From IMG/VR virus record IMGVR_UViG_3300050156_000193, positions 8,450 through 72,449 of that record: 64,000 bases of DNA, one strand, 5' to 3'. Source of the DNA: a virus. Lineage: Duplodnaviria; Caudoviricetes. The translations under genes and the position numbers were made by a program. A model generated the notes under the pieces. That model did not search any database, was not told the DNA's origin, and saw nothing but the letters and a program-made list of their open reading frames with translations. Numbering within the stretch: the first letter of the stretch is position 1; every line of letters starts with the position of its first letter. This document shows positions 12,728 to 57,006 of the stretch, in pieces.

Positions 12728-13879
12728 TTAACCTTGAAGAGCTTCCCAAACGCTGCCTGAGCGATCCTTTGCAGGGTCTACTTGGGGCTTAAACATAGAA
12801 GCGTCCATAGCCGCACCTCCCGCCGCCATGCCTGCTGCGGTAATGGATAGCGCCTTCTTTGAAGGAGTAATAGTGGGAATACCCAAGTCCTTACCCTTAG
12901 TGGTGTTTGCCGCCCAGTTTTGAATCTTAGCGCCGCCTACTTTAAGAGGAGCCTTTACTGCCCCAGCTAAACCTTTACCGATCATCTTAATACCGGACCC
13001 GGCCAACGAAGCAGTGCCTCCAATAGCTTTACCGACACCAGAGCCTATTCCCTTGGCGACAGTCCCGGCAAGGGCTCCTAAGAAAGCTTCTTTTTGCATT
13101 TCCTCAGCCTGCTTTTGCAGACCGGAACGCTTTTGAAGCTCAGCTTGAATTTCTTCTGCCAAGATCAACTTATCGGACAGCTCTTCTGCGGCCTTTAGGA
13201 ATTCGGGTTTACGGAAAGATGCCGATTTCGTCATTTCTCCTACAAAGTCTAAGCTTTCCCTAGGGGTTCCATAAACCAGGCAGCTTACCTTCTTGAAATG
13301 AGCAGGGTCTAAAATTGCACAGGAGAGCTTCTCTAGGCCTAAAGGATCAGCCTTCACCTCAGAGGCAAGCTTGACCAATTGCTGAGCTAGAACTAGGCCT
13401 TCTGCTTGTAAGAACTCAACTCGACGCGCATTGGCGTGAGCTTCCTTAATGAAGAACGCTTGAAGGGCCTGCTTTTCCATAAGAGGGAAAGAGTACTGAA
13501 GAGAAGCTTCTGCTTCAACTTCCTGGGTTGCCAATGCGCCGGCTCGTTTTTCAGACCAAGTTTGATTAGACTCTTCCATAAGAGAGGCTGACTTTACTTG
13601 CTGAGGGACATCGAAGGCTTCTGGGATCGAAGCCATCTTGAGAATTTGACCATACTCAGCCAGGGGGAATTCCGAAGTACGGTCCCCAGTAACCTCTATG
13701 CTTTTAAGGTAGGTTAGGGTATTGGTAGCTTCGACAGCTCTACGCAACTGCTCAGGGTTCAGGTCTTTCTCCGAAGCCATCTTGGCCAAACCTTGGTTCA
13801 AGGAAATGCCTGAGTTTAGAAAGTCGCTTGTGCATTTAACAGCGATTTCTTGGAGATCGGAAACAGAGATACTGGCCAT
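12728..13879 (-). CDS. Virion-associated protein, K-x-A-rich with Gly-zipper C-terminus
   Basis: At least 11 K-x-A motifs; TAAAAT-N6-ATG start. Confidence 0.7.
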   Translation of the reverse strand: MASISVSDLQEIAVKCTSDFLNSGISLNQGLAKMASEKDLNPEQLRRAVEATNTLTYLKSIEVTGDRTSEFPLAEYGQILKMASIPEAFDVPQQVKSASLMEESNQTWSEKRAGALATQEVEAEASLQYSFPLMEKQALQAFFIKEAHANARRVEFLQAEGLVLAQQLVKLASEVKADPLGLEKLSCAILDPAHFKKVSCLVYGTPRESLDFVGEMTKSASFRKPEFLKAAEELSDKLILAEEIQAELQKRSGLQKQAEEMQKEAFLGALAGTVAKGIGSGVGKAIGGTASLAGSGIKMIGKGLAGAVKAPLKVGGAKIQNWAANTTKGKDLGIPTITPSKKALSITAAGMAAGGAAMDASMFKPQVDPAKDRSGSVWEALQG

Positions 13880-13902
13880 GGTTTGATTTTAAGTTTGAAA
13901 GA

Positions 13903-14079
13903 TCAATTCTTGTTACGGATGAGCTTTTTAAGCTCATGTCCTACAGAATACGCCCCTAGAAGCCCAGCCCCAGTAAGAGCAACGCCCTTTCCAAAACGAG
14001 ATTTCCCCGAAGCAGTAGAAAGATAGTCTTTCAAGTGAGACTTACTAAATAACGCGCTCCGCGCTTCATATGAGTTAAT
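13903..14079 (-). CDS. Unlisted 58-aa hydrophobic ORF (ATT start or decayed start)
   Basis: Open frame INSYEARSALFSK...GKGVALTGAGLLGAYSVGHELKKLIRNKN*; ATT overlaps the TAA of 14079-14708. Confidence 0.35.
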   Translation of the reverse strand: MNSYEARSALFSKSHLKDYLSTASGKSRFGKGVALTGAGLLGAYSVGHELKKLIRNKN

Positions 14080-14708
14080 TACAAGGCATCAAAGCCCTTG
14101 AATTCAGGATTGATTGACATGAGCGCCAGCTCGATGTCCTTTCTAGCAGCATCAGAGTCCATAACCCAGGCCTTGAGAAGACGTGCCAAGTCCATACTAA
14201 GCTTTGTCCATTTCGTAGCCTCTTTACTCCCCTCAGAAGCATTGCCTGAGAATAGAGCCTCTTTGCTCTTAAACACTGAAAGAGTGAATAGCTCTTGTAA
14301 TCCCTCTACCGGATTTAGATTAATAGTCTTACCCAGCCTCCATGCAATGAAGTCCAAACCTTGGCTTAAAGCCCAGATCTTCATACCCCTGATACTCTCT
14401 GATTCCTCCTCTTCAATAAGCTCTAAGAAACTCAGCTTATCAAACTGAGAAATATCGAAGAAGATACTTCGGTAATTGTCTAAGACTGGAACTGGGATTT
14501 CTATAATAGAGGCAATCTTAGCAAGGTCAGTGCTTGCAATCAAGCAAGCCTCGACATAACCTCGTTTAATATCGGATTTGAAAATACCCAGAGACTTTTG
14601 ATAAAGCTCGGTAACTTGAGAGTCGCCCGCAAGGATAGAGTCTACTAAGGTATCTTTACCAGTAGACTTGTTCTTGATTAGAACGTATCGGGCATACACT
14701 TCGGGCAC
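14079..14708 (-). CDS. Hypothetical protein in head module
   Basis: 209-aa helical ORF with phage-like codon use; function not recognised. Confidence 0.65.
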   Translation of the reverse strand: MPEVYARYVLIKNKSTGKDTLVDSILAGDSQVTELYQKSLGIFKSDIKRGYVEACLIASTDLAKIASIIEIPVPVLDNYRSIFFDISQFDKLSFLELIEEEESESIRGMKIWALSQGLDFIAWRLGKTINLNPVEGLQELFTLSVFKSKEALFSGNASEGSKEATKWTKLSMDLARLLKAWVMDSDAARKDIELALMSINPEFKGFDAL

Positions 14709-14784
14709 GGGAGGCTTTGCTGAATTAGAGGGGGGGCCTCTATGAGCAGATCTTAAACGAGTTTATTCAACAGCTTAGCGGATG

Positions 14785-16701
14785 TCAACCGTTGGTCTGT
14801 CCAGAGACGGTTTTCGGATCATACCCCTTATTCATGATGACGGTAGTCTTCAGCTTGGAAACACAGTCTCCAAGCATTTTATACACGTTCTTGATTTGGG
14901 CGATAATAGCAAAAACCGATTCTGAATCCATACCTTTAGACATTTGGTCTAACTTTACTCGAGTCAAGAAAAGGGTTCTACCCAGCTTGTCAACAGCCAT
15001 GTCCAACTCAGGGAGGTACTCTTCAATATGCTCCCAGAGATCTGGTACTTGTAGGAGCTGGGCAATAACGGTAGCTTCTAGGACTTGACTGTCATTCAAA
15101 CCAGCTGCATCTTGCAAGTTAGAGGCGAAGTTATTGCTTAGCGCACCATTAGGAGCAACCTTGTCAACTCTAGGAGCGACTGCACCATATTGAGGAATAG
15201 TGGCCGGGGCAAAGTCAGTACTGGCCGCTTCCGCAGACTTTGACAGGAAAACCTTGAGAAGCTTGAACTCTTCAGCCTGCTTCAAGAAGCTACCTGCATC
15301 GGTCGGATCCAAGTGCTCCTCTTCCACCAGAACCTTCAATGCCGAGGGGAATCCTCCAAGAGTCTTTCCGTTGGCAGAGAACTCGACGCCATCATGACGT
15401 AGATTGAGTTCAGCACCTAGGTATTGAGAGGCTACCAATTCCTTACCTAAAAGAGCATCATTAACGCTTCGCTCAACCTCGGAGTCAACAGATTGAGTCA
15501 AGGTAACAACGATGGCATTGTAGGGTACAAACAACGTGTCCCCAATAACATCCACTTCTTTGGTATAGTTTCTGTAACCTGAAATCTTACCGATACGCTC
15601 TGCACAAACTTGGATATCAACACCTGATTGAGTCAGAGTTACAGAATTTGCAGTGAACGGGCCTAGGGCTTCTCCGGCTGAGGTGAACAGGATGAATTCT
15701 TCCCCCCGAGCCAAGTCTCGCAGAAGCTTTGGAGGGTTAACTTCAAAGATATCAGTCAGGACCTTTTGAGTATCCAAAGGATCTCCGTTGGTCACCAGGT
15801 TTCCTCTTGCGTAAGTCCCGTCCATGAATAGACTGACAATGCTTCTATTCCCAACCGGATTTAGTCGGTGGTATTTCGGGAGATATGCAGGCTTGCTCTG
15901 ACCATTCTTGAATGCAATAGTGAAGTCCCTGCCCCCATCTGACATCGGGTTCACCTCTGTGAACTTGCCAGATTGATTGAAGGGTTGATAGGTGACTGCA
16001 ATTCTCGAGAAGGGATTGGCCCCGGTAATGACATATCCGTCTTGTGCAAAGGCTGCAGACATGACAGCATCACCTAAGCTCTGAACAGCACGAGGAGAGG
16101 TGATAACCGAAACGTCGTTAACTCGATTGATAACCGGCCCAGTTGCACCTGAGTTAATAGGCTTTCCCTGAGCTTGGGCGTTCAGGACCGAGAAGATAGC
16201 CTTGAGGCCAAACATCTTGTCAAGCTTGGAGTATAGGCTTTGTTCAGCAGCAATCTTCTCAAAGGTAAACTGCTTTACCGCTTCCGGCAGGATAGACAGG
16301 AACTCCGTCAGTCTACTGGTGGATGCATAGACAAACTTCCCAGTTCGAGGAGGATTAATCATTGCCGACACATCGGGGTTTGTCGGAACGGTATCTGGGA
16401 TCTTCTTCGACTTACCCGCAGTGGCAGAGACTGATGAGACGATCTGAGAGATCGTAGCATTCGTCAGAGGTCTAAACTGAGCCTCTGTTTCAAAAAAAGC
16501 AGAGTCAACAGGGAAGACCGTGTCCCCCTTGGCCACTACTGGGATGTACACAATTCCTAACCCAGCTCTTAGGATAAAGATACCCGCCTTTACCCCATCT
16601 TCTCCTAGGTCTTGAGTAATCTCTGAAAAGTTCAGAATCAGAGGTCCAAGTTCCGGAGCAGTCTGAAGAAACTTAGCTAGAGCAATGTCGGAAAATTCCA
16701 T
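14785..16701 (-). CDS. Large virion structural protein (unknown)
   Basis: 638 aa; K-x-A motifs; TATAAT-N6-ATG start; located in structural cluster. Confidence 0.65.
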   Translation of the reverse strand: MEFSDIALAKFLQTAPELGPLILNFSEITQDLGEDGVKAGIFILRAGLGIVYIPVVAKGDTVFPVDSAFFETEAQFRPLTNATISQIVSSVSATAGKSKKIPDTVPTNPDVSAMINPPRTGKFVYASTSRLTEFLSILPEAVKQFTFEKIAAEQSLYSKLDKMFGLKAIFSVLNAQAQGKPINSGATGPVINRVNDVSVITSPRAVQSLGDAVMSAAFAQDGYVITGANPFSRIAVTYQPFNQSGKFTEVNPMSDGGRDFTIAFKNGQSKPAYLPKYHRLNPVGNRSIVSLFMDGTYARGNLVTNGDPLDTQKVLTDIFEVNPPKLLRDLARGEEFILFTSAGEALGPFTANSVTLTQSGVDIQVCAERIGKISGYRNYTKEVDVIGDTLFVPYNAIVVTLTQSVDSEVERSVNDALLGKELVASQYLGAELNLRHDGVEFSANGKTLGGFPSALKVLVEEEHLDPTDAGSFLKQAEEFKLLKVFLSKSAEAASTDFAPATIPQYGAVAPRVDKVAPNGALSNNFASNLQDAAGLNDSQVLEATVIAQLLQVPDLWEHIEEYLPELDMAVDKLGRTLFLTRVKLDQMSKGMDSESVFAIIAQIKNVYKMLGDCVSKLKTTVIMNKGYDPKTVSGQTNG

Positions 16702-16770
16702 GATGAGATTATAGAGGATTAGGAAATAAGAATCTATCCTATTTTAGATAGAAAGCCTAAAATGCTGCGT

Positions 16771-17574
16771 TTAACAGCAGCAGCCAGGGGCAGAGACTTT
16801 GCCCAGGCCAGGGTCAGGATTGCTTGGTCCGGAAGAAGACGCTACTTGAATAGTAGAGTCTCGGATTGCAGGAGAGCTTCCATTTGCAGTTTTGTAAATA
16901 GCACCCCCTACTATGCTTGAGGCATAGGCCTCAGGAGTCATGCCGTTTCTATCTGACTTACCCAACCCTAGATAGGCGGCAATAGCTGCTGTGATTTTCG
17001 AAGGAAAGGCTCGGTTATAAGAGTCTCCATTCACCCGGTACGCACCATTTTTGAAAGATACTGCTCGATACTTTCCTTCGAGGATAACCAAACCTGCCAA
17101 GATTGCCTTGTGCATGTTTGCCTCTCCTAAGACATGACCTAGAAGATCTTGACCTGGTGCAACACAGAGCTGAGGTGCAAGGTCTGGTCTCAGTCTTTCA
17201 ATCTCACAGCTCCCGGAGGGAGATCCTCCTTTGATGAAGTTCCAACCCATCACCTGCATTAACCCCACCCCATATAGCCCTTTATTGACGTTATCAATCG
17301 CAGTAGCGCTTCCAGAGGAGAAGATGCTTTTGATTGCAGAGCTATTCAGGAAATGAAACCCTCCAGTCCCAGGAGTTGAAGCTACCTTAGGACCTATGGC
17401 GTTGGCGTTATGAGTACTCTCTAATCGGATTTGTGCATTGATGATATTTACAATATCCTGCTCCTGACCCAGAGTGCCAGCAAAGTAAGTCTCTACGTGA
17501 GACTTAATGATATCCTTGACTTTAGGGATTCTAGAAGCGTCATACCCAATCTTAGGGGCAGTTCCGATAGTCAT
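16771..17574 (-). CDS. Lysozyme/transglycosylase-like peptidoglycan hydrolase
   Basis: IRLES (catalytic Glu), GVGLMQVMGWNF and AYLG motifs of the lysozyme-like superfamily. Confidence 0.65.
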   Translation of the reverse strand: MTIGTAPKIGYDASRIPKVKDIIKSHVETYFAGTLGQEQDIVNIINAQIRLESTHNANAIGPKVASTPGTGGFHFLNSSAIKSIFSSGSATAIDNVNKGLYGVGLMQVMGWNFIKGGSPSGSCEIERLRPDLAPQLCVAPGQDLLGHVLGEANMHKAILAGLVILEGKYRAVSFKNGAYRVNGDSYNRAFPSKITAAIAAYLGLGKSDRNGMTPEAYASSIVGGAIYKTANGSSPAIRDSTIQVASSSGPSNPDPGLGKVSAPGCCC

Positions 17575-19400
17575 CAGTACTTTCCTTCTTGACCTTCTCC
17601 AAACTCATTACCAAACATGTAGCTGGTAATAGGGTCTGTGCTATGAACATGGCTCTCTGAGTGAGTTGCAGCACTCTCTTTCAAGGAATCGCGCAGGCGC
17701 GAAAAGCTAAGTTTCGAAACCCAGTCTTTATCTAGCATCTTGGCAGTCTGCAGCCCGGGAACGATAGGCTTAACCTTAAGTCCTGTAGACGAGATCGGCA
17801 CCATTTTAACCCCCAAGTCCTTTAGATCTTGAATATGGTTCCCATCTAAGAGCGTACCTGGGACCAGAGCCCCCACCCCCTTGGACAAAATGCTGCCCTC
17901 TGCATGATTGACCCCAACTTCCTTGGAGCCTTTATCTAGGTATTTACGGATGGTATTGATCTCTACCTTATCCCCGGGAAGGAGCCCGGTTGCACCAGGG
18001 TGTTCGACTTCGACGTACTTGAGAAGATTCTTAGAGATGATTTCAAAATGCCTAGGGTCCAAACCTCCTCCATAGATATTACGGAGTTCGTTTGATATAT
18101 ACTCTCGCCCTGCACCAATGCCTCGAATACTCACTAGCTTTCTAGGATTTACTGTTCCAGTAGATAACTGATCCCCCATTCTAATAGTATCACCAGGTTT
18201 TACGGAGACCCTTTGCTCGATAGGGACAAAGTGAGACTTTTCATTGATAAAAACCACAGAGTCTCCTAGCGGAGTTTTCTTAACATCGGTAACTTTACCG
18301 TTGATAGATGCAATAGTAGCTTCATCTTTGAAGTTATCAGATGGGTTATTCAGCAAGTTTGCAGCCTGCTCGTAAGCATTCCCCTTGCGCTCCCCCACGG
18401 TAGCCTTGTGCTTTGTACTCAGCATGCTTTGAGTCAGGACTTCAGACACTGACTGTGCTGCAATAACTCCTACGTTGGTTCCGATTTCAGGTAGATGCCC
18501 GGAAGCCATTAGACCGAAGCAATGCTGACACACCCCTTCTTTTGCCTCGCAAGTCATTGCGCTTCTGACTTTTAGCTTCTTCTTCCCTGCATGAGAAGCA
18601 TCTCTGATAGCAGCTTCGTCTACCAAGTGATTAGTGTCGGCAGAGTATCGACCAAGAAGACTCTTAGTATCGGTTACGTCTACGAAAATACCATTATGAG
18701 TCCCGCAATCTTGAACGGTAATAACTTCATGGAATACCGTAGGGGAAAGCTTTTTGAACAAAGCTCCGGGCAAGGCAGTACTCAGTTGGCTCATCACAGT
18801 AGATCCTCGACCCATGTAGCTAAGAGCTATGTGTTCCGCAGGGCGCATGCCTTCCGCAAAACTCCGCTCAATCACTACTGGAATTAGCTCCCCCTTAACG
18901 TTCAAAGACATTAGGGGGGTAGAGGTTCCACTAGCCAACTGGGCAGGGTTTCCTCGGGCACCGGTCTTTGCCATCTTGGCAGCAGTAGAGTTCTTTGATA
19001 GGAGGTAATCTAGGTTCTGTTTTTCGATCTTCTTGTTATAGCCCCCGGTAAGCTCTGCCAGTTCTTGGTTCTTAACGGGCTTAGTTCTATCTGACATCAT
19101 GATACGTTGTACCTTGGTGTCGTATTCCCTGATAATGGCTTGGCGCTCATCACTATCATTGATATAGTCAGATAGGGGGGTAGACGCCCCAATCTCAGTT
19201 GCAGTATTGAAGAATAGACGCCCTAAGTCATTGATATGGTGAACCGCATTTGGGCCACCGTTTTTCAATAGGTTGTTGACCACCTTAGAGACGCCTGCTT
19301 TGTCCAAAGGGTTGTGGATATCAAAAGCTTTCTTAGAAGCTTCTGTAGGCATTGAATGCTTTAGAAGTAGGGCGCCTGCAGTAGTAATCTTATCGGACAT
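17574..19400 (-). CDS. rpoC: RNA polymerase beta' C-terminal piece
   Basis: TTAG start (cf. TTVGR), GARGNPAQL, DCGT, CEAKEGVCQHCFG Zn site, GVIAAQSVSEVLTQSMLSTKH trigger loop, RHFEII. Confidence 0.9.
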   Translation of the reverse strand: MSDKITTAGALLLKHSMPTEASKKAFDIHNPLDKAGVSKVVNNLLKNGGPNAVHHINDLGRLFFNTATEIGASTPLSDYINDSDERQAIIREYDTKVQRIMMSDRTKPVKNQELAELTGGYNKKIEKQNLDYLLSKNSTAAKMAKTGARGNPAQLASGTSTPLMSLNVKGELIPVVIERSFAEGMRPAEHIALSYMGRGSTVMSQLSTALPGALFKKLSPTVFHEVITVQDCGTHNGIFVDVTDTKSLLGRYSADTNHLVDEAAIRDASHAGKKKLKVRSAMTCEAKEGVCQHCFGLMASGHLPEIGTNVGVIAAQSVSEVLTQSMLSTKHKATVGERKGNAYEQAANLLNNPSDNFKDEATIASINGKVTDVKKTPLGDSVVFINEKSHFVPIEQRVSVKPGDTIRMGDQLSTGTVNPRKLVSIRGIGAGREYISNELRNIYGGGLDPRHFEIISKNLLKYVEVEHPGATGLLPGDKVEINTIRKYLDKGSKEVGVNHAEGSILSKGVGALVPGTLLDGNHIQDLKDLGVKMVPISSTGLKVKPIVPGLQTAKMLDKDWVSKLSFSRLRDSLKESAATHSESHVHSTDPITSYMFGNEFGEGQEGKY

Positions 19401-19483
19401 GGGTCTATTTTATCCGATTTAGAAGAATGCGTCTACTTGATAAAGCAGCTACCTAAGGTTGGTAACGGTTTGCTTTCAGCCCT

Positions 19484-19528
19484 AGTTGTAAATTCCCAAA
19501 TCTGCCGTTTCTTGGTATAAGAATAGTA
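19484..19528 (+). promoter_or_regulatory. Class I phage promoter
   Basis: AGTTGTAAA-TTCCCA-N17-TATAAG-AATAGTA. Confidence 0.75.
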
Positions 19529-25808: not shown

Positions 25809-26951
25809 TTATCCAATAGTAATAGGAGTGTTCACTTTAATCGCCCCGGACTTTAGCGCAGCCAAAGCTTCTTCTTCGGTCTTGAAATGAACCTGTTTTT
25901 GCTCATGATCAGGCTCTGTTAAATGCATAGACCCTAGAATAGCTTCATGTCCAGGGGCTACCAGACTGTTCCCTAAGCCCTTTCGGAAGTCATAGATATG
26001 AGACTCTGGTAAGAGCTTCTTCCTAGCTTCGACAATAGCCTCATCCGAAATAGGAACATGAACCGTTAACGCATCCCCGTCGTAGTCTCCTGCAAATAGA
26101 CTCAAGTGAAGAGGGCTTATCCCTAGAGTCTTCCCCGGAATAGGCTTTGGGTAAGCTGCTGTTACGTTAGACAACATCAAAGTAGGGGCACGGTTTAACA
26201 AAATAGGGATTTGCTTGATCAACTTATTATAGCTAGCCTGTGCAGCAGTAGTCCTGGCAGTAACAGCCTTCTTTGCTTCCGGGTAGGTGTATCCGTTTTT
26301 GACCAAGTCTCTAATAATGTGGTACTCGTACATGGTCCATATCATTTCGCTAGGTACTGCAGCTTCGTTAAAACCTAGATTAGGCTCAGCATAGATTGTA
26401 GCTCGACCTGAAAAGTCCTGCTTCTTGGATAGGATCTTGCTTTGAAAGAAGCCGGTCTTAGGCCCCCCTTCTCCTCCAATCTGTTTCAAGAAACCCTTCA
26501 GTCCTTCCCCGCGAGATGAACCCTTGATGGCCTCTCCTACCCCAAAGATAGCCTTGGCCCCGTTATAGAGATCTCTACGCTCTCCTGCAAGCATGTCATC
26601 CCCGAAGAATTCCTTAGCTTCACCGAGCTTGGAATTCACAAGCATATGATCCTGGTAAAGCTTATTAGCGTCCGGATATTTGATTCTATTCCCGGCCTGT
26701 TGAATAGGGGGCCTACAAATCGGGGGAATTACCGGCATATGGTTAATAATGAAAGACTCTTCCGGCTTAGTCCCAGAGCTATCTAACGCAGCCAAGTACT
26801 TGATCTGCTTCACCATATCGTCACGTTTAGCTGCGCTCTTAACTTCGTGAATATCCTTCTTCAGCGCCCCCAGCTGTTCCTTAATGTTTACAGCGGAGAG
26901 CATATCGTGAAATGCTTGACCTCCAGTAATGATAGAATCTTCGTTTTCCAT
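25809..26951 (-). CDS. rpoC: RNA polymerase beta' middle piece (catalytic)
   Basis: MPVIPPICRP, DANKLY, KKQDFSGRATI, LLNRAPTL, catalytic AGDYDGD, PGHEAILG. Confidence 0.92.
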   Translation of the reverse strand: MENEDSIITGGQAFHDMLSAVNIKEQLGALKKDIHEVKSAAKRDDMVKQIKYLAALDSSGTKPEESFIINHMPVIPPICRPPIQQAGNRIKYPDANKLYQDHMLVNSKLGEAKEFFGDDMLAGERRDLYNGAKAIFGVGEAIKGSSRGEGLKGFLKQIGGEGGPKTGFFQSKILSKKQDFSGRATIYAEPNLGFNEAAVPSEMIWTMYEYHIIRDLVKNGYTYPEAKKAVTARTTAAQASYNKLIKQIPILLNRAPTLMLSNVTAAYPKPIPGKTLGISPLHLSLFAGDYDGDALTVHVPISDEAIVEARKKLLPESHIYDFRKGLGNSLVAPGHEAILGSMHLTEPDHEQKQVHFKTEEEALAALKSGAIKVNTPITIG

Positions 26952-26988
26952 GGTTCAATTTTAGATAGAAGGGGCCAGAGCCCCTGGG

Positions 26989-29900
26989 TCAATCTTCTTT
27001 TTCAGCTTCAACTTCGTCTTCGATCACAGGCCTTGCTTTAAGAGAGTTCACTTGGATGGAGCGTAGCTTTTTCCCAGATTCGATATCATGCAAATGAAAG
27101 GTGTCCCCTTGCTTCTTAACCCCGATCTTTCCGTAAGCAATCCCTTCGAATTCCTTAGTAGATAAACCGAGAATAGACTTGATAGGTCTTTCCATCAAAG
27201 GATTGGCAATAGGCTCACTCAGAGAGTAATGCCCCCATTTGTTACCTCTCATGCCTCCTAGGATGGCAGGGTCAAACAGGCCTCCCTTTTCCGGCTCCAA
27301 GTTCTTTGCGGAAATCATAGAGGGCTCCTTAACCTCGCCATTAGACATAGACAGAATATCCTTATCCGTCAAGGGGGACGCCGTCAAGGTTCCATTACTG
27401 AGCGTAGTTTTAATCCCTGCAGCGGTCAAGTAATTGATGAACTTTTGAGTTGCAAAAGTAACCTTAGGCTTTGGCAAAGGTTGACCTGTCAAGAACTTAT
27501 CCCAGTACTCAGGGCTATTTTCACTCTTAGTGGTGGCAATTTCTTTCAAGTTCTTTCGGGCATTCGATCCCATCAGGCCTAGCATTTCCATATAACCAAC
27601 GCTCTTAGACCCCTCTTCTCCACCCTTACTAGGTTGACCGTTAGCATCGTAGCTTCCTGTATTTCTAGCAGACCAGTTCTGGTCCGAGGTCTTGTAGAGT
27701 TTCAGGAAATACTGAGGACCGTTCAGGACTTTGCCTAACACTTTTTGAGTGGTAGGGTCTACCAGTTCTTCTGAGTCTTGAAGACCGTGGGCTTCCAGTT
27801 CCTTTTTTAGCCCGACAACGTTAGAAGCCTTGCTGAAGTTGTGGATTAAGTAAGGAGTTCCAGTTTTCTTAGCAATCTTTGCAGCAGCAGTTTCCATAAG
27901 CTGACCAAGATTCACTCGAGAAGTTACTGATGCAGGATTCAGTAGGATATCAACCGGCTTACCCTCACCTTTAAGGTAAGGCATTTCATGGTCTTCCAGG
28001 ATCAGGGATACGATCCCCTTATTGCCGTGAAGGCCGGTCAGCTTGTCCCCAACCTCTAGGTGCTTCACAGACCTGATGATAAAACGAACCTGACGGCTTG
28101 CTGTATGAGCGTCCACCACCTCTCCGTTTTCTTCATGGTTCCAGGGCTCCATAACAAGCCTATAAGGGGTCACCAAGGTCTTATGGAGTCTGCCTAGCAT
28201 CTTATCCTCAGGAGTCGGCTCCTTGTGTTCTAAGACGGCATATACAGGGTCCCCATGCTTAAGGATTGCACCCTGCTTAGCAAAGCCTCGATCATCTAAG
28301 TTATCAAGCTGCTCGCGGGTGATCTTACCTGGGAAATATCTAGCAATCAGAGACTTCTTAGGCACAGACATTTCGTTGATTTCGTAGTCAACCTTATAAG
28401 CATGGTGACTGGACAAACTCTGAGCTGCGCTTCTGCTAATAACCAATCCGTCCTCGTGGTTATAACCCTTCCACGGAATGTAAGCTGCATGAAGGTTTCT
28501 ACCTAAAGCCAAGGTACCGTCTTTAGTGTAGTTACTATCAAACAGGACTGTTCCAGGCTTAACTCGATCTCCAACTTTCACCAAAGGCTTTTCGTCATCG
28601 TGAAAGCCCTTCATATTGAAAGGTAGATTCTTGACAGCTTGGATTGTTTCCTTTTTACCATCCGGGGTTTGAATAACGACCTTCAATCCGTCCACGGCAG
28701 TAATAACCCCCTCCACCGGAGAAGTCGTCCCTACTACGGCTGCAAGCTGTTTGGCAAAAGAAACCCCATGTTCATTCACTGTTTGAACCAGAGGAGCTTC
28801 TCTGTTTACCAAGCTCAATGCTTGGGGGATAGCTTTGCCAGCCATGGTCAAGCGCCCTGGGTGGTTACTATTCAGGAATGGGACCAGATTAGTGGTCACC
28901 GTATACATGTCAGTAGTATCTGCTAACCAATAGTCGATGTCTTTTGCAGGACACTTCCCAAGTTCTCCATGTATTTGAGCCTGAACCTCCTTCATTCCAT
29001 CTTGGTGGGGGAATCCGATGTTCTTTGTCATCATCTCATGGACGCTGAGGAAATGGTACTTACCAGAGTTATCCTTTACTCGTGAGTAAAGGTTCCCCTC
29101 CTCGTCTCTACGTGCAGTCACCGTGAATCGCTGGTCGATACCCGCATGACCGCTTTCCGGAGTACGGCTAGGGTCAATAATGCCTAAGTGGGACGGGTCA
29201 ATGTCTCGGGCAGACATCGGTACTCCTCTGTCAGAGGCAATACCCCCCTCTCCTGCACCCAGTACCGTTACCTTAGCGACGTTTTCAACTGACTCGATAG
29301 GGTTGGTTTCTGACGGAGTAGAGACTAGATTACTATCCATCAAGTAATTAGAGAAGAACTTGTTGAAGGGCTTAGGAACCATACTCCCTTTTAGCTTAGG
29401 CTTCAAAGGGTCCATTCGGTCCAATTCACGGACTACTCTACCCTTCACTAGCTTAACGACCTGATGTTCCTTGGCAAACCGAGTCTTTAAAAAGTCTGGG
29501 AGGTTCTGTACTCTCTTGAACTGTAGAGAGTCCCGATTGTCTTCTTGACGTTTACCAGAGTGAGTATCGACGAGGTTCTTCAAGGAAAGGAGGATGGCGT
29601 CGTGATTGACTCCAACCAGAGCCTTACCTAAGGTTGACTGAGTTGTTTGCGGGTGCAGAGAAGACTCCTCTAGGGACTTCTTTAGTTGCATCGCCATCCC
29701 TTCCGGGGAAGCATTTGCTTCTTGCTTAGAAGTGGAAACCATTCTGTGATAAATATCACTCAAGTACTTGTTTTCTTTACCTTTGACAAAAGCCAGATTA
29801 TCATTCCACACTTCAGGAGGGACGTAGTTACTAACTTCTTTCGGCCCAATACCAAAGACCTTTGTTAATAGCGGGGCTGCAGGAATTTTTGAGCTACCAA

Positions 29901-30393
29901 CTTCTAGGTAAAAGATCCCGGTTTGCGGCTCCAAGGTTAGAGAAAAGCTGCGGCCAGTACCCGTGTTAAAGTGGCTCTCCAGCTCCCCAGTGTCCCGAAA
30001 GCGGGTGTATACGCCTGGGCGAAGTTGAAGCTGATTTGCAACCGAGTAGTTGTTCCCCTTGTAGACAAGGGTATGCTTCCCAGTTAAATGAAAAGAGTCC
30101 ATCAACGTAAAGTCTTGATGGGTATCCAGGACCTTACCGGTGAGCTTATCCACTAACTTTAGGTCTGCTTTGATAGGGTAGGTGAGGCTGCGACTCTCCA
30201 GGATCGCCTTCTTCTCATCCCCATGTCCAATAGGGTTTCTCTCAGCCCGCACATTATCGATCTCTAGGCGAAACTGTTTCCCCTCAATCGGGAATTGATT
30301 CTTCAGCCCATGAATCAGAGCGGAGTCGACTCTTTCACTGACTTCATCAGGAGATGAAAAGATCCGCGTTAGGCTTTCAGCTGAGGTAGGCAT
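26989..30393 (-). CDS. rpoB: RNA polymerase beta subunit fused to beta' N-terminal segment
   Basis: QLQLRPGVY, PSRTPESGHAG, GYNHEDG, GDKLTGLHGNKG, DILLNPASVTSRVNLGQ, YFLKL; last 132 aa carry LTASP...NGEVK...GLFDP...WGHYSL (beta' region A). Confidence 0.92.
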   Translation of the reverse strand: MPTSAESLTRIFSSPDEVSERVDSALIHGLKNQFPIEGKQFRLEIDNVRAERNPIGHGDEKKAILESRSLTYPIKADLKLVDKLTGKVLDTHQDFTLMDSFHLTGKHTLVYKGNNYSVANQLQLRPGVYTRFRDTGELESHFNTGTGRSFSLTLEPQTGIFYLEVGSSKIPAAPLLTKVFGIGPKEVSNYVPPEVWNDNLAFVKGKENKYLSDIYHRMVSTSKQEANASPEGMAMQLKKSLEESSLHPQTTQSTLGKALVGVNHDAILLSLKNLVDTHSGKRQEDNRDSLQFKRVQNLPDFLKTRFAKEHQVVKLVKGRVVRELDRMDPLKPKLKGSMVPKPFNKFFSNYLMDSNLVSTPSETNPIESVENVAKVTVLGAGEGGIASDRGVPMSARDIDPSHLGIIDPSRTPESGHAGIDQRFTVTARRDEEGNLYSRVKDNSGKYHFLSVHEMMTKNIGFPHQDGMKEVQAQIHGELGKCPAKDIDYWLADTTDMYTVTTNLVPFLNSNHPGRLTMAGKAIPQALSLVNREAPLVQTVNEHGVSFAKQLAAVVGTTSPVEGVITAVDGLKVVIQTPDGKKETIQAVKNLPFNMKGFHDDEKPLVKVGDRVKPGTVLFDSNYTKDGTLALGRNLHAAYIPWKGYNHEDGLVISRSAAQSLSSHHAYKVDYEINEMSVPKKSLIARYFPGKITREQLDNLDDRGFAKQGAILKHGDPVYAVLEHKEPTPEDKMLGRLHKTLVTPYRLVMEPWNHEENGEVVDAHTASRQVRFIIRSVKHLEVGDKLTGLHGNKGIVSLILEDHEMPYLKGEGKPVDILLNPASVTSRVNLGQLMETAAAKIAKKTGTPYLIHNFSKASNVVGLKKELEAHGLQDSEELVDPTTQKVLGKVLNGPQYFLKLYKTSDQNWSARNTGSYDANGQPSKGGEEGSKSVGYMEMLGLMGSNARKNLKEIATTKSENSPEYWDKFLTGQPLPKPKVTFATQKFINYLTAAGIKTTLSNGTLTASPLTDKDILSMSNGEVKEPSMISAKNLEPEKGGLFDPAILGGMRGNKWGHYSLSEPIANPLMERPIKSILGLSTKEFEGIAYGKIGVKKQGDTFHLHDIESGKKLRSIQVNSLKARPVIEDEVEAEKED

Positions 30394-30752: not shown

Positions 30753-32570
30753 TTACATTGCCGGTGCAGCGCTTTGATCGGGCGGGGCACCACCCACTTC
30801 AGTAGTCCCAGCCTCCCCTATATTAGGGGGAGGGGTCGTGCTTTGAGCCAAAGCCTGCTGCTGCATTTCTGATTGTACTTGATGAGTCTGATTTGTGCGA
30901 CCTTCTTCTACAAGTTTCGAGACCATCAGCCACTTGGCGTAGTCCTGAACCTGCAACTGATTGAGCACAGTCCGGGTAGTAGTAGGGTCTGCATTGATCA
31001 GCTGTTCAGCAATTTGCTGACATTCAGTCAAAGCGGACTGGTAAGAGTCATCCTTGGTGTTTTGCTTAGCAATGGCCAGGCCCTCAAGGTATTTAGCTTG
31101 CTCAACCGTAAATTGGATTCTGACGTCAGACTGAGCCTTCATCTTTGCATCCTTTTCGATTCGAACAAGCTCGTCTTCGTAAGACCTGCCTAGGGACTCA
31201 TATATAGTGGTCATAGACACATTCCCTCCCTGAGCGAGGTTCATTAAGACGCTCTTCAGGGCATCGTCATCAGTCAGCTGGAATGGGGTTAGTCCGATTT
31301 CACAGGGCTCCCAAGCCTGATACGCTGCAACCTTGGTGGTAATCCAATCCAGCAGCTCCTGGATTTGACCCACATAACTGCTAAGCGTATTTTTTAGCAT
31401 ACGCAAGCCGACAGTAGAGCTGGTCCAATTAGTAGAACCTGAGAGAAGCTCTCGACTGACCCCTAAGCTAAGCAGAAGCGATTCTTCTGCCTGGGCAATT
31501 TCTTGGTTAACCAGTAAGGTTTTCCCTTCCCCGCTGATAGCTTGATACCCTACTGGGAGAGGGGCAATGAGGACATGGTTATTGTCTTGCTTATGCTTAA
31601 CCATCGCCTCTTCCATTTTGGAGACGAAGTTTCGCATAGAGATAGCAGTGACCGGGTCAGAGTTCCCAGACTGGGCTTGAGGGAAGAGGACTCGCATCGG
31701 TGCCATGAAGTCCGTAGCGATGCTTTCGTTGGCCTTCCGAAGCGTGGCTTGGTAAAACACTAAGTTATAGTGACTGATCAGTGGGGGAATTGACACTCCG
31801 TTAACTGAAAAGCCTAGGTCTACGTTTCTGAGATGGAAGACATAGTCATCCTCAAATTGAAAGTCTTTCTGATCTTTGATCGCCTCGATAAACTCCCAAG
31901 GAATAGAGTCGATGAGGAGTCTATCCCCTGCCAAAACTCTACGCTTGATATCGTTAGGGACCTTGTAGTAGTACTGACTCTTACCTGTGATCGGGTTATG
32001 GTTGACGGTAATGTTCAGAGGGTCCCAAACGATCAAGTTCATGTCGTTCAGATTCGTAGACTTCGTGTCGTTACGAATGAACGTACCTGAACCTCCGCAC
32101 TTCGGGCAAGTTCCGCTCAGATTAAAGTCTCGATACTTTAGGAAATTGGCGGAGTTTGCACCATAGGCAGAAGCACAGTGAGGACAGGTGTAGGTCCGTG
32201 TAACTGGAAAGTGGATGCTGATAAACACATTCCCAATCGTGAAGTACTGGAAACCGATGTCGTGAAGAGCTGACTTGAGTCGAAAGCTCTTAGTCAACCG
32301 CTTATACCGATCTACTGTAGAAGGGTCGGTTGCAGAGTAGGTAAACTCGGTGATCGGGTAGGTAGCTAGCTTCCGTAAGACCTCTGTCGTTACAGGGCTG
32401 TGTAGGGTGATAAATCTTACCCAGCGAATGACATCGTTCAAGTTTCTAGGTAGAAACTGGTTACTGATCGAGAAAAAAGGGTTTCTAGTTTGAGCTTGGT
32501 TGGTAGCCCCGATGTTGGATTGCTGCCCTCCAAAACCTGGAGTTAGAGGTGGGTAATAGGTAGAGGTCAT
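30753..32570 (-). CDS. Portal protein with Zn-ribbon insertion
   Basis: 605 aa; IGFQYFTIGNVF, WDPLNI, GVSIPPL...LRKANESIA, LLLSLGVSRELLSG portal-like motifs; CPHC...CPKC. Confidence 0.7.
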   Translation of the reverse strand: MTSTYYPPLTPGFGGQQSNIGATNQAQTRNPFFSISNQFLPRNLNDVIRWVRFITLHSPVTTEVLRKLATYPITEFTYSATDPSTVDRYKRLTKSFRLKSALHDIGFQYFTIGNVFISIHFPVTRTYTCPHCASAYGANSANFLKYRDFNLSGTCPKCGGSGTFIRNDTKSTNLNDMNLIVWDPLNITVNHNPITGKSQYYYKVPNDIKRRVLAGDRLLIDSIPWEFIEAIKDQKDFQFEDDYVFHLRNVDLGFSVNGVSIPPLISHYNLVFYQATLRKANESIATDFMAPMRVLFPQAQSGNSDPVTAISMRNFVSKMEEAMVKHKQDNNHVLIAPLPVGYQAISGEGKTLLVNQEIAQAEESLLLSLGVSRELLSGSTNWTSSTVGLRMLKNTLSSYVGQIQELLDWITTKVAAYQAWEPCEIGLTPFQLTDDDALKSVLMNLAQGGNVSMTTIYESLGRSYEDELVRIEKDAKMKAQSDVRIQFTVEQAKYLEGLAIAKQNTKDDSYQSALTECQQIAEQLINADPTTTRTVLNQLQVQDYAKWLMVSKLVEEGRTNQTHQVQSEMQQQALAQSTTPPPNIGEAGTTEVGGAPPDQSAAPAM

Positions 32571-34181: not shown

Positions 34182-34217
34182 AGCTCGTCTTAGCCCCAAC
34201 TAGGATATAATCCTACT

Positions 34218-35384
34218 ATGCTCTCCAACCCTGCTCGACCAGATCCTAACAAAGATGAAGGTACAGTTCTCCAAGTAGACGCCGTTCGTTGTCTTTGCAA
34301 AGTTAGAACCTTGAAAGGTCAAGTCCTAAGCCCTGTAAGTTGGACGACCTCTTTTGGGGGGTCTACTCGAGGTTCTGATCGAAGTACCCCTCACGTAGGA
34401 GATCGCGTTTTCCTAGACTTTGGGTTAGGGTACCCCGTCATCACAGGGTTTCTCCCCAAGCTGCAACTCGCAGACGGAGCTACTCCTTTAAGTATCAATT
34501 CAGGAGATGAATTGGTCGATACGGGTAGCTACAGCCCCAACGGATCCTCTACTAAAGGAGATCAGAACCGACCCTTAGATACCCTTCTAGGAGATAGGCT
34601 CTTCTCTTCAATAGGTGGAGCGTTCCTAGGTTTACTACGAGGTGGCTCAGTAGTATTGCGCTCTTCCAGAGTTTCCGAGATCTTCTTGTCAAAGTTCGAT
34701 AGCCTAGTCAGGGTAGTGTCCCGGAACTGGGAGCATTACACTGACGTAAGCTCGGAAATCATCCGAAATTACAAGGGTAGAGTCTATCAATACTCCGGGT
34801 ATGCTAGCACCTACCTTAAATCCAAGATCGAAGACTATAACCTACATTTCTATTACGGAGATGTGAAAGCTGCAGAAGCTGTTAAAACCAACATCCACTC
34901 CGGTCTAACTCCTCCTGCCCAGGACAGCATTATCTATAAAGAGCAGATCACCGACGCCCCTCCCGGGTCTGCTACTAGAGAGCTAATGCACAGAACCTTG
35001 AACCTTTCCGGGAATGAAGAAGTTTGGATTTTCAACGGTTCTCATTTTACCAGGGTAATAAGTACCGCAGAAGAACTTCGTTTAACTTGGAATGACCAAA
35101 ATATACTCTCTATCACAGAGACAAGTATCCATGCTTTTCACAAGGATGGGTCAGATCTGATCTTAGATTCTGCTGGGGTTAGAGCTTCGTTTAAAGATGG
35201 GTTAGTGAAGATAGAAGATGGGAAAACCTCAGTGAAGTACGGGGCTAGTAGTATAGAACTTACCACGTCCGGAATCACTGGTACTTCTGGATCAGGGGCG
35301 TACCAAGTAACCCCGACCCAAACCACGATTTCAAATAGTGGGCATCAGGTGACAGTAGGCCCTGGTGGGGTTAATATTAGCTAG
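34218..35384 (+). CDS. Baseplate spike/hub protein (gpV/gp5-like)
   Basis: N-terminal OB-fold-like segment (EGTVLQVD...CKVR...PHVGDRVFLDF...PVITGF) and C-terminal beta-strand repeats; TATAAT-N6-ATG start. Confidence 0.65.
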   Translation: MLSNPARPDPNKDEGTVLQVDAVRCLCKVRTLKGQVLSPVSWTTSFGGSTRGSDRSTPHVGDRVFLDFGLGYPVITGFLPKLQLADGATPLSINSGDELVDTGSYSPNGSSTKGDQNRPLDTLLGDRLFSSIGGAFLGLLRGGSVVLRSSRVSEIFLSKFDSLVRVVSRNWEHYTDVSSEIIRNYKGRVYQYSGYASTYLKSKIEDYNLHFYYGDVKAAEAVKTNIHSGLTPPAQDSIIYKEQITDAPPGSATRELMHRTLNLSGNEEVWIFNGSHFTRVISTAEELRLTWNDQNILSITETSIHAFHKDGSDLILDSAGVRASFKDGLVKIEDGKTSVKYGASSIELTTSGITGTSGSGAYQVTPTQTTISNSGHQVTVGPGGVNIS

Positions 35385-37445: not shown

Positions 37446-38468
37446 ATGGGTGGAAATGCACTTTCATTGCCGTCCGTCAGGCTTTGTGCCGACGTCTATT
37501 TCAAGGTAGAAGACAGCTGTGTACAAAGTCTTCGTAAAGCTTTTCCAGACTGCAGAGTAGAGCCTATCTTGGCCTACCGGGAAAAGAGGAGCTTTGGGGA
37601 CTTGGATATTCTGGTCTCAAGAGAAGGATTTGATCCTGTAGCAGCTTCAAGCGCTTTTTCCCAACCTTCTCACTTTGAAACAGTTAGAAATGGGCCAGTG
37701 ACTTCCTATGGTATCCGAGTAGGTCCTGAGCCTTTCGGAATCTTCCAAGTCGACATCATCACAGCCCCTGCAGACCAGTTTGAAGCAGCGTTGAACTATT
37801 TCAATTACAACGACTTGGGTAATCTTCTAGGTAGAATTGCTCACTCAATGGGTGGGCTGAAGCTGGGTCATGATGGGCTCACTTACCCAGTCCGTGCAGG
37901 GGACGGTAATCACGTCCTCGGAATCATTCCTATCTACACGGATTATTCCAAGATCATCCCCCTGATTGGACTAGACTACTCAAGGTTCCAAGCCGGGTTT
38001 GATAGCTTAGAACAGATCTTTGAATTTGTAGCAAGCAGCACTTACTTCAATTCAGATATCTATCTACTGCATAATCGGAATGCCACAGGTCGTATCAGAG
38101 ATAAGAAGAGAAAGACTTATATGGACTTCTTAACTTGGCTGGAGAGGCGTCCCAATCTTTCCAAGAAAGACGAAGTCCGACCTTCCCGGTCTGATTGGCT
38201 GGCGAAGTTCAAGCAAGAAATCCCAGGATTCGAATCTAAATACGAGGAAATCATGGAAGAACGCCGTTTAAACGAAGCCTTAAAACTGAAATTCAACGGG
38301 AATCTGATCTCAGAATGGACGGAGTTAGAAGGCAAACCTCTTGGTCAGTTCATGGCAGCATTCAATGCTCTTTTCGCTTCCAAGCAAGACATGCGAAGTT
38401 GCCTGCTAAGCTGTAGTCCTGAAAAGATCAAGCAGACAGTCCTTGATTTCCACTCCGTTTTCAAGTAG
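37446..38468 (+). CDS. Pol-beta-superfamily nucleotidyltransferase
   Basis: KRSFGDLDILV and FQVDII (DxD...D). Confidence 0.75.
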   Translation: MGGNALSLPSVRLCADVYFKVEDSCVQSLRKAFPDCRVEPILAYREKRSFGDLDILVSREGFDPVAASSAFSQPSHFETVRNGPVTSYGIRVGPEPFGIFQVDIITAPADQFEAALNYFNYNDLGNLLGRIAHSMGGLKLGHDGLTYPVRAGDGNHVLGIIPIYTDYSKIIPLIGLDYSRFQAGFDSLEQIFEFVASSTYFNSDIYLLHNRNATGRIRDKKRKTYMDFLTWLERRPNLSKKDEVRPSRSDWLAKFKQEIPGFESKYEEIMEERRLNEALKLKFNGNLISEWTELEGKPLGQFMAAFNALFASKQDMRSCLLSCSPEKIKQTVLDFHSVFK

Positions 38469-38477
38469 AATTTACCC

Positions 38478-38816
38478 ATGCCGATCCTAGATTTAACTTT
38501 GACCAACCCTTCTGTAAAAGCCTTTATGGAGGGGCATTCCGACATCCCTCCCGTAGGGGAGCTTCTGTGGATCCATTCCCACTTTATGGAAGACAACTTC
38601 CTATCCGAAATCGAAGTCATGGTAGCCATGGCGGAGCAGGTCATCCTGGAAAACCCTAAAAAGAAGGGGATAGCCGCAAAGCTGGTATCTTTGGCGGAGA
38701 AGTTTGCAACTCAAATCGGCACGATAAATGAGCAGACTGCACCAGAGATACTCATGACTTTAAGAGAGATTTTTCGAGTATGCACAAGGATTCTTCATGT
38801 TGTTAATAAAAGTTAA
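38478..38816 (+). CDS. Hypothetical protein
   Basis: In-operon ORF. Confidence 0.55.
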   Translation: MPILDLTLTNPSVKAFMEGHSDIPPVGELLWIHSHFMEDNFLSEIEVMVAMAEQVILENPKKKGIAAKLVSLAEKFATQIGTINEQTAPEILMTLREIFRVCTRILHVVNKS

Positions 38817-49548: not shown

Positions 49549-49624
<76 letters not shown>

Positions 49625-50879: not shown

Positions 50880-50944
50880 ATTAGTGTAGACAGAAAAGTC
50901 TAAAATAATCAACCACTTAACTAAAATAAAGGACTCTTAGCGTT

Positions 50945-55671: not shown

Positions 55672-55727
55672 GAGACAGGAAATCTCTACTATTCCAACTC
55701 AACTGTTCTATAACCTAGGAGCCAACT

Positions 55728-55976
55728 TTGGCAAACCTAAATTCAGCCGTTTCATCGATCCCCCTAACCTCCCCGGCCTCCTTTGGCACAAGAACCTTGC
55801 AGGCTGTAGGTATTCGGCGACGGGTGGTTTTGCATACCTTGGATCCAGTCGAGGAGGACGATCTTGGTCTCAAGGATCATCTCTCTTTAGATGATTTGTC
55901 CTCTCTGGGTATCGGTGAAGATGTTGTCTGGGATTATCAAAAGTCTAAGGCCGGACTCTCCCCGGTGCTTTTCTAA
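55728..55976 (+). CDS. Small hypothetical protein
   Basis: SD TAGGAG + TTG after promoter. Confidence 0.5.
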   Translation: MANLNSAVSSIPLTSPASFGTRTLQAVGIRRRVVLHTLDPVEEDDLGLKDHLSLDDLSSLGIGEDVVWDYQKSKAGLSPVLF

Positions 55977-56142
55977 AAAGGATCAGGATCTATGTGGAAT
56001 TGGCAATTCTGGCCAGGGGACACTCAACCCTGCAAACCGGTATCAAAGCCCTTTCGGTTTGTCCAGCAACCTACAGTTGTGACCAAGGGTCCGGCCTCTC
56101 TAGCTGCAACCCCAGTAATCGGAGCGCACGCCAAGAAACCTC

Positions 56143-56940
56143 CTAAGTTCCTGCAAGCCCAGACAGAGAAGCGTCTCCGATCAACTCTCGGATTCTAGCT
56201 AGACCTGCATTCTTGTAACTACGAACTTGGTCTTTGGTTAGACCAAGTTCTCTTGCAATATCTAGAGGTTTTTTTTCGTCTCCATCGAGAAGGCCGAAAG
56301 ATAGGAAGATAACCTTGTTCATTGGGTCGGGAAGCTCCCGGATGACTTTGTGAAGCTTTTCCCGATCTAGTCTAGCATCGACTTCATCTTCTATAGGGTT
56401 TATCTCGAACGAGGAGTCTTCTTGCATGTCCTCTATGTAGAAAGTCAAGTACCGAGTCTGGTACATTTCGAAAAGGACTTTCTCAGGGACGTCTGGGAAC
56501 AGCGGCTTGAGTTCTTCAAAGCTAAGACCATCATTGGCATCAATAGCCTTTTGAATCTTAGTGCCCAGCTGCTGTTTCCAAGTAGGAAGCGACACGATAC
56601 GCTGAGTACTCATCCGCTCTAGAATCCGTTGCTTTACCCACCAGCCTGCATAGGTGAGGAATCGGTACCCTTCTTGCGGTAGGAATTTCTCAATACCTAC
56701 AATCAAGCCTTCGTTGCCGGCGCCGATGAGTTCTTCGAACATCTCAGGGTCACTCTTGCTAAAGTGCTTTGCCTGCTTGAAGACAAATCTAAGATTTGCC
56801 CGAATGATTCGGTCTCGAATCTCTGCCCGTCTGGCCTCTGTGATGCCTTCATCTTGGTACTCCAAGAAAAGGTCAAACTCCTCCTCTTTACCCAAAAGAG
56901 GTTCTTCCATAATCTTGTCGTAGTATTTTCCGATTGACAT
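56143..56940 (-). CDS. Sigma70-family RNA polymerase sigma factor (probable start 56940)
   Basis: Region 1.2 PLLGKEEE; region 2 ANLRFV...GNEGLI.GIEKF...GYRFLTYAGWWVKQ; region 4 HTH; TACAAT-N6-ATG start. Confidence 0.9.
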   Translation of the reverse strand: MSIGKYYDKIMEEPLLGKEEEFDLFLEYQDEGITEARRAEIRDRIIRANLRFVFKQAKHFSKSDPEMFEELIGAGNEGLIVGIEKFLPQEGYRFLTYAGWWVKQRILERMSTQRIVSLPTWKQQLGTKIQKAIDANDGLSFEELKPLFPDVPEKVLFEMYQTRYLTFYIEDMQEDSSFEINPIEDEVDARLDREKLHKVIRELPDPMNKVIFLSFGLLDGDEKKPLDIARELGLTKDQVRSYKNAGLARIRELIGDASLSGLAGT

Positions 56941-57006
56941 GCTTGGATTGTACGATACAATCTGAAAGTATTCAACTATTTTTGTTCGAAAGGTCCTAAT
57001 AGTTTT

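Follow-up and report, generated by a model that had tools for sequence, protein, structure and literature searches.

Leaderless middle and late transcripts are known from the Thermus phages phiYS40 and P23-45, the late promoters of which lack a -35 element. Phage N4 injects an RNA polymerase (RNAP) for its early genes and uses the host RNAP with an activator at late promoters with a poor -35 element; the late promoters of T4 consist of a -10 element only (TATAAATA) and are read by gp55/gp33/gp45, with a phage sigma-like factor. To our knowledge, neither N4 nor T4 makes leaderless late mRNAs as a rule. Phages phiKZ and AR9 have two sets of multisubunit RNAP (virion and non-virion), with split beta and beta' subunits and no sigma70-family sigma (PMC7598289), and the transcripts of AR9 carry untranslated regions of 26-491 nucleotides (nt) and are not leaderless. 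In Actinobacteria and Deinococcus-Thermus, TA-led leaderless genes have a -10 box adjoining the open reading frame (ORF), their signature being a TANNNT box that begins, with its first T, some 12 bp ahead of the start (PMC3160421; PMC12340547). Here we document such a motif, together with the specificity of its spacing, its conservation and the genes that carry it, in 64,000 nt of DNA from a virus of the Caudoviricetes (IMG/VR record IMGVR_UViG_3300050156_000193); this stretch, hereafter the window, corresponds to bases 8450-72449 of a single 72,449-bp contig. It encodes a multisubunit RNAP of bacterial type and a sigma factor, and the hexamer TA(A/T/C)AAT stands exactly six nt (N6) before the ATG of virion, RNAP and sigma genes. 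We consider it rather probable that the contig would use at least three promoter kinds, namely host sigma70-like, class I and class II, with leaderless transcripts made from class II and from the sigma gene promoter.

The pattern TANAAT-N6-ATG matches the window 12 times; 100 dinucleotide shuffles average 1.60 +/- 1.25, and none of them (0/100) reaches 12. Across the 72-kb contig the spacing of six gives 12 matches, nine of them opening ORFs of at least 80 amino acids (aa), and the other spacings within 3-10 give 0-2 matches; a generic analysis of k-mer over-representation brought out no motif beyond TGGTATA. Eight window sites fall on the starts of real ORFs: the seven listed in a preliminary description of this DNA and an additional one at 38478 (+). 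All seven are as they had been described, without Shine-Dalgarno (SD) sequence, the box being TAAAAT at 1012 (-), 13879 (-), 19400 (-) and 26951 (-), TATAAT at 16701 (-) and 34218 (+), and TACAAT at 56940 (-); the excess over shuffled sequence likewise bears that description out, as does the agreement of its TANNNT-N6-ATG architecture with the published leaderless signature (PMC3160421; PMC12340547). In seven of the eight cases the ATG is the first possible start of the ORF, the preceding in-frame stop being 1-14 codons away. All eight lack an SD (anti-SD duplex energies from +1.8 to -4.0 kcal/mol), in a phage that overall makes weak use of SD, with AGGA at -13 to -9 in about 30% of the other genes. 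The window sites thereby have the features of TA-led leaderless genes: TANNNT with its first T 12 nt upstream, an AUG start and no SD. The eight sites are:

1010..1024, minus strand: TGcTAAAAT-N6-ATG of the DUF5856 gene, with TTGACT 15 nt upstream
13877..13891, minus strand: class II TAAAAT-N6-ATG of a 383-aa virion protein
16699..16713, minus strand: TATAAT-N6-ATG of a 638-aa virion protein, with a second box CTAAAATA at 16740-16747
19398..19412, minus strand: class II TAAAAT-N6-ATG of the beta' C-terminal piece
26949..26963, minus strand: class II TAAAAT-N6-ATG of the beta' middle piece, directly past a GGGGC-tctg-GCCCC hairpin
34206..34220, plus strand: TATAAT-N6-ATG of a 388-aa spike-region protein, past a T-rich terminator-like stretch and without -35
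38466..38480, plus strand: TAGAAT-N6-ATG of a 112-aa gene, with TTGATT at 17 nt, 10 nt past the stop of the upstream gene
56938..56975, minus strand: sigma promoter TTGAAT-17-TACAAT-N6-ATG, overlapping an inverted repeat ATTGTA-N3-TACAAT

A megablast search of the phage collection with the RNAP region retrieved no nucleotide-level relative, and relatives were found at the protein level only. The 1134-aa beta protein matches over its full length those of Salmonella phage Arash (OQ632216; 180.8 kb) and Vibrio phages D69, D181 and D148 (~187 kb), with which the window has in common the RNAP (52% identity on beta), the sigma factor (42%), the portal, the major capsid protein (MCP) and gene order. 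By tblastn, 23 window ORFs could be placed on Arash, including orthologs of its portal gp204, MCP gp226, virion proteins gp218, gp220, gp221 and gp222, spike-region protein gp238, SNF2 helicase gp217 and sigma gp196. Given this homology to Arash/D69-type phages across the window, the contig is a fragment of a larger genome, that of an Arash-like phage, probably of about 180 kb (cultured relatives have 181-187 kb). The comparison of start sites was extended to 5 IMG/VR and 36 metagenome loci (with labels such as L018) that encode an ortholog of the beta' C-terminal piece (beta'C) with 50-77% identity, a protein family with more than 540 members at E<=1e-20. The 'moraphage' lineage of 2025 was set aside as a different one, without RNAP.

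In 393 kb of dereplicated, uncultured relatives the N6 peak comprises 17 bona fide ORF starts, all with TAAAAT, whereas other spacings reach 0-5 each. These starts belong to beta'C (10), a gp220-like gene, the beta' middle piece, a gp222-like gene, a gp217-like helicase and four without assigned function. The N6 class II pattern is confirmed to reach well beyond the window. The codon after the N6 box is ATG in 24 cases, GTG in one, TTG in one and CTG in none, and a pyrimidine at -1 with A at +1 is found at 24/25 sites (P about 5e-7), which fits the preference of bacterial RNAPs for Y(-1)R(+1) at the start site. Upstream of beta'C, the box [c/t]TAAAAT(a) is present in nearly every lineage, mostly with a class I box in reverse complement (CTTATACC) 20-40 nt away. 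Nine distinct lineages have it 6 nt from the ATG, two have it at 7 nt and the rest at 19-35 nt, the only boxes at intermediate spacing being a secondary TACAAT in L018 and a TAGAAT in L033, each 10 nt from the ATG, and the six bases between box and ATG differ among the nine N6 lineages. The beta' middle-piece gene is also of the N6 leaderless type in L003/L006 (CTATAAT) and L026 (TAAAAT), and the gp220-like gene keeps TTAAAAT-N6-ATG in L002 and has the box at a 39-nt spacing in L003/L006. In Arash and D69 the TAAAAT box precedes the starts of orthologous or structural genes by 14-55 nt, and these starts are SD-led. The exact TANAAT-N6-ATG pattern has 3 matches only in Arash, because leaders there are longer, and a reading of these few matches as non-conservation was dropped. 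In the window itself, the class II box of the portal gene (CTAAAATC, 32639-32646, -) lies 76 nt upstream of the start, so that the portal transcript would carry a leader.

Judging from these patterns, the hexamer is a promoter -10 element and not a ribosome site, since its spacing is kept while the sequence diverges, its signal is restricted to ATG, the -1 position is a pyrimidine, and relatives such as Arash and D69 keep the same box ahead of SD-led starts. The +1 would most likely fall on the A of the ATG, giving 5'-AUG leaderless mRNAs, and class II promoters would be late ones; this leaderless late-promoter reading appears well supported by comparative evidence. A few points weigh against it. 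The ten beta'C N6 sites are orthologs and hence not independent, and throughout the lineage the transcript start on the ATG is a prediction from sequence. At the 16701 gene the conserved box is the upstream one (CTAAAATA), and the leaderless use of this site is less certain because the spacing of the proximal box TATAA(T/C) varies among relatives (N4 in L002, N3 in L005). The site at 38478 (+) may be a chance match or an internal promoter, since it lies 10 nt past the stop of the preceding gene. The reading also presupposes a host capable of leaderless translation. A further site, in frame within the 521-aa gp222-like virion gene (TACAAT-N6-ATG at 11434-11448, -), has a class II-type upstream context (tctctatc) and could produce an N-terminally truncated 403-aa isoform, or be due to chance.

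The seven sites of the preliminary description are a mix of at least two promoter kinds. In an alignment of 16 window sites, those with TAAAAT/TATAAT have no conserved -35 element, only a T/C-rich run such as ttctatC, and the class II sites at 13879, 26951, 34218 and 16701 have neither a -35 at primary-sigma distance nor a TG. A scan for consensus sigma70 promoters over 12.6-32.6 kb gave 20 against 22.3, with no enrichment, which sets class II sites apart from ordinary full sigma70 promoters; a terminator scan over the same interval (24 against 19.5) was not enriched either, which makes terminators statistically unusable. The three kinds would be a host sigma70-like promoter, which has a -35 box set off by a 17-nt spacer and precedes the sigma gene and the tRNA array; class I, of the form ATTCAAC-N16/17-TGGTATAAG, heading non-structural genes of the plus strand; and the -35-less class II, [c/t]TAAAAT(a), heading virion and RNAP operons. 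In the sub-lineage of the window many class II boxes and the sigma promoter lie at exactly 6 nt from an ATG that follows a pyrimidine, a placement that would start transcription on the A of the ATG and yield 5'-AUG mRNAs translated without SD. The class I and tRNA features are:

19489..19528, plus strand: class I example, an ATTCAAC-like box, 16/17 nt and TGGTATAAGaatagta
-6607, 1856, 19514, 23942, 35444, 41424, 49881, 50872, 53091, 55657 and 57271, all plus strand: the 11 class I copies, intergenic or near-start
49236-49624, plus strand: near-consensus sigma70 promoter and the array of four tRNA genes behind it, Gly-TCC, Leu-TAG, Ser-TGA, Thr-TGT

Class I probably needs a dedicated sigma, since TATAAG lacks the final T of TAnnnT. 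In Arash, GGTATAAG is found 30 times on the minus strand, which is that of the non-structural genes, versus once on the plus strand. The tRNA array is preceded, 9 nt from its start, by TTGACT-17-TATAAT (11/12 consensus), and the phage therefore also bears true host-type promoters. Two arrangements combine several boxes. At 32634-32672, back-to-back class II boxes (CTAAAATC on the minus and TTAAAATA on the plus strand) sit in a 267-nt divergent region between the portal gene and a 405-aa GDSL-like gene, which can be read as a bidirectional late control region. At 50872-50945 (+), a class I box followed by two tandem CTAAAATA boxes ahead of one gene suggests control by both promoter classes.

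The sigma gene deserves separate consideration:

56143..56940, minus strand: sigma factor of 265 aa with regions 2-4, closest to principal/RpoS-type sigmas and group-1/2-like

The protein is 42% identical to its ortholog gp196 of Arash and unrelated to gp10 of the same phage. Its gene has a promoter, TTGAAT-17-TACAAT, with a -35 element within the 16-18 nt typical of primary sigmas, and comparable promoters precede the orthologs in Arash (TTGACT-17-TACTAT, plus a GGAG leader) and L009 (TTGCAT-17-TACATT). Because of this sigma70-like -35 at 17 nt, also present in the Arash and L009 orthologs, the window sigma is outside the virion-gene promoter class. The co-expression of RNAP and sigma with virion genes, as put forward in the preliminary description, thus stands for the beta' pieces, which share the class II promoter, and is not supported for the sigma, which has its own sigma70-like one. 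We would place the gp196-type sigma of the window among the early products, made from a host-type promoter; with its region 4 intact, it would be a suitable match for class I promoters, which do have a -35. The ATG at 56940 is fixed by the N-termini of homologs (MSIGKYY, MGLTKYY, MDLSKYY) and by upstream stops in L008, which together rule out a start at the upstream TTG (57129). Of note, the annotated start of Arash gp196 (L001 10564-10741) is probably about 59 codons too far upstream, the true start being Met60, since conservation, the GGAG SD and the TTGACT-17-TACTAT promoter agree on it. Within window positions 56925-56975 the sigma promoter overlaps the perfect inverted repeat ATTGTA-N3-TACAAT, and the opposite strand carries a strong promoter, TTGACA-16-TACAAT (11/12), the -35 of which covers the sigma ATG; the arrangement looks like an operator or a divergent-promoter switch.

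The genes under these promoters, together with their neighbours, are the following:

632-1012, minus strand: DUF5856/phrog_858 (Dps-like) gene, from family matches
5628..6518, minus strand: MCP ortholog, 49% to Arash gp226, SD-led (AGGAG)
12728-13879, minus strand: 383-aa virion protein, ortholog of Arash gp220, detected in Arash by mass spectrometry (MS)
14785-16701, minus strand: 638-aa virion protein, ortholog of Arash gp218, MS-detected in Arash
17574-19400, minus strand: beta' C-terminal piece (Pfam and PDB)
25809-26951, minus strand: beta' middle piece, bearing the catalytic region (Pfam and PDB)
26989..30393, minus strand: fusion of beta with the N-terminal part of beta' (1134 aa; Pfam and PDB), sharing an operon with the portal and a 105-aa gene
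30753..32570, minus strand: portal gene, ortholog of Arash gp204
34218-35384, plus strand: 388-aa baseplate/spike-region protein, ortholog of Arash gp238, which adjoins a PAAR protein
38478-38816, plus strand: 112-aa gene

The earlier gene assignments are mostly right, the beta' pieces being verified by Pfam and PDB, the genes at 13879, 16701 and 34218 by Arash orthology and that at 1012 as DUF5856; Pfam gave no match for the class II-linked proteins of 267, 105, 209 and 112 aa. The RNAP genes have the portal on one side and the MCP ortholog on the other, as the preliminary description had stated of portal and capsid. There is one RNAP set only, with a single beta match per Arash record and a single set in the contig. 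In Arash beta, beta'-N and beta'-mid form one protein of 1525 aa (gp206); unlike this fusion, the beta' of the window is split, and its separate middle piece is served by a predicted leaderless promoter.

Virion preparations of Arash contain gp206 (beta) as the most-detected protein, as well as gp216 (beta'), gp10 (sigma, 100% coverage) and gp217 (helicase), and its authors proposed injection of the RNAP for early transcription, or carry-over; gp196 is nowhere in the text or the virion table of that paper (PMC10585845). The idea of RNAP packaging is thus not new, having been suggested in print for Arash. When the published counts are expressed per residue, beta, beta'C, gp10 and gp217 reach 2.0-2.4 spectra and the portal 1.5, ratios that are suggestive but not clean as support for packaging. 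Two further considerations count against it or against its extension to promoter use. The Arash proteome of 116 proteins includes ribonucleotide reductase, primase and ligase at 0.9-1.4 spectra per residue, and carry-over of the RNAP signal is possible because such replication enzymes are also present; moreover, the pairing of sigmas with promoter classes is drawn from domain content only. Going by the Arash proteomics, virion carriage of the RNAP would be plausible, and we infer that it is RNAP made from class II promoters that would be packaged. Since gp10 is in Arash virions and gp196 is not, the packaged sigma, if any, would be of the gp10 type and not that of the window; gp10 lies within a virion-protein operon in Arash, no ortholog of it is found in the 72-kb contig, and it would have to be encoded outside it.

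Promoters that consist of a -10 element only, without TG or -35, are very weak for unaided sigma70, and its action on class II is unlikely because these sites lack both elements. Host sigma70 as the enzyme of the late transcripts, as previously assumed, is not supported for the same reason. That phage RNAP with a phage sigma reads class II has, in our judgment, almost an even chance of being correct; that host RNAP does so with a phage factor has a reasonable, if less than even, one, and an N4-like route, in which a phage activator assists the host RNAP, would work equally well. TAAAAT hardly varies although the hosts range from Salmonella and Vibrio to bacteria of soil and sludge, which hints at a co-evolving phage factor. 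The full model of the preliminary description, with RNAP and window sigma packaged and injected for class I and host sigma70 alone making late leaderless transcripts in the manner of N4, draws on the RNAP genes lying in the late/structural module under class II, on the presence of RNAP and a sigma in Arash virions, and on the promoters themselves, class II obeying TAnnnT and being readable by a primary sigma, class I (TATAAG) breaking it and hence needing a special sigma. We nevertheless regard it as unlikely: the window sigma is the ortholog of gp196, which is missing from the virion table, and not of gp10; its promoter has a sigma70-type -35 that class II is without; and class II would be very weak for sigma70 on its own. 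What survives of the packaged holoenzyme is the plausible carriage of the RNAP, not that of a gp196-type sigma. As a tentative scheme, possible rather than probable, phages of this lineage (roughly 170-190 kb) might inject one RNAP, with a gp10-type virion sigma starting the infection, an early window-type sigma redirecting the enzyme and a -10-only late regulon, RNAP genes included, being leaderless. If true, late expression would bypass both host promoter recognition and SD-dependent initiation.

The RNAP could also be absent from the virion, with host RNAP (using sigma70 or a phage factor) reading the sigma gene and class II, the phage RNAP and sigma then reading class I, and the MS signal in Arash reflecting carry-over. 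The many replication enzymes in the Arash preparation fit such a course, and the sigma gene, with its host-type promoter, shows that at some stage the phage makes use of host RNAP; we find it improbable all the same, for class I stands ahead of small genes that look early, of replication genes and of a tRNA-rich arm, which would then follow the structural genes, and the RNAP is the top MS match: per residue, beta, beta'C, gp10 and gp217 yield nearly the same number of spectra, more than the portal does. Far less credible is a role of TAAAAT at -12 to -7 as an A/U-rich non-SD translation enhancer (of the ribosomal protein S1 type) inside longer transcripts. The box does occupy the position normally held by the SD in a phage with weak SD use overall, but it lies 14-76 nt ahead of SD-bearing starts in Arash, D69, L003/L006 and the window portal gene, its invariant T, A and final T mirror -10 recognition by sigma, and its sites follow hairpins or, between divergent genes, adjoin class I boxes back-to-back; an enhancer should, moreover, tolerate variation in a spacing that is exactly N6.

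With class II read as -10 promoters, the lineage can be compared with the systems outlined above. Like TA-led bacterial genes, the window has TAnnnT with its first T 12 nt before AUG, no SD and a promoter that doubles as translation-start signal; unlike them, it has a nearly invariant box (TAAAAT), and that box belongs to a phage lineage with an RNAP and sigmas of its own. The cultured relatives infect Salmonella and Vibrio, in which leaderless genes are rare, and these relatives use SD leaders. With the window, Arash and the Vibrio phages share class II (TAAAAT) as well as class I boxes (GGTATAAG / GTTATAAG); Arash and D69 differ from it in having class II 14-55 nt ahead of SD-led starts and not at N6. 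As in phiKZ/AR9, there is a multisubunit phage RNAP whose genes would be expressed with late/virion genes, and here as there the enzyme may be injected to start infection. Unlike phiKZ/AR9, the window has a single RNAP set, a beta-beta' fusion, sigma70-family sigmas and sigma-type promoters, and so does not belong with the two-set, sigma-independent systems. Its beta/beta' type (Pfam and PDB) likewise separates it from N4 with its single-subunit giant virion RNAP; no homologs of gp55, gp33 or N4SSB turned up, in an analysis with no search aimed at them.

Multisubunit phage RNAPs studied so far, as in phiKZ/AR9, are sigma-free and come in two sets, whereas this lineage pairs one beta-beta' enzyme with canonical sigmas and readable promoter classes. 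It is abundant in sludge, soil and freshwater metagenomes (>540 beta' homologs) and has been cultured on Salmonella and Vibrio, which makes Arash a tractable system for the question whether a sigma-dependent holoenzyme is injected. The repeated shift of the late -10 box to exactly N6, relative to SD-led sister phages, amounts to a natural experiment on when leaderless translation pays.

Among the neighbouring genes, an SNF2-family ATPase (window 22263-23768, +; Pfam SNF2-rel_dom, 1.5e-21) is the ortholog of Arash gp217, which is co-transcribed with beta'C and matches the RNAP in virion MS abundance; it may be a RapA-like partner of the phage RNAP. In L029 the gp217-like gene is fused to an N-terminal extension, and its own class II start is predicted to be leaderless. 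No terminal repeat connects the two ends of the contig. Its bases 1-80, outside the window, consist of tandem copies of the 12-mer CGGGTTCAACAA, and a 23-bp direct repeat (GGTTAAAATCCAAGAAGAAACCA) occurs in two copies at window positions 21198-21245 (+), where ORFs of 549 and 361 aa meet.

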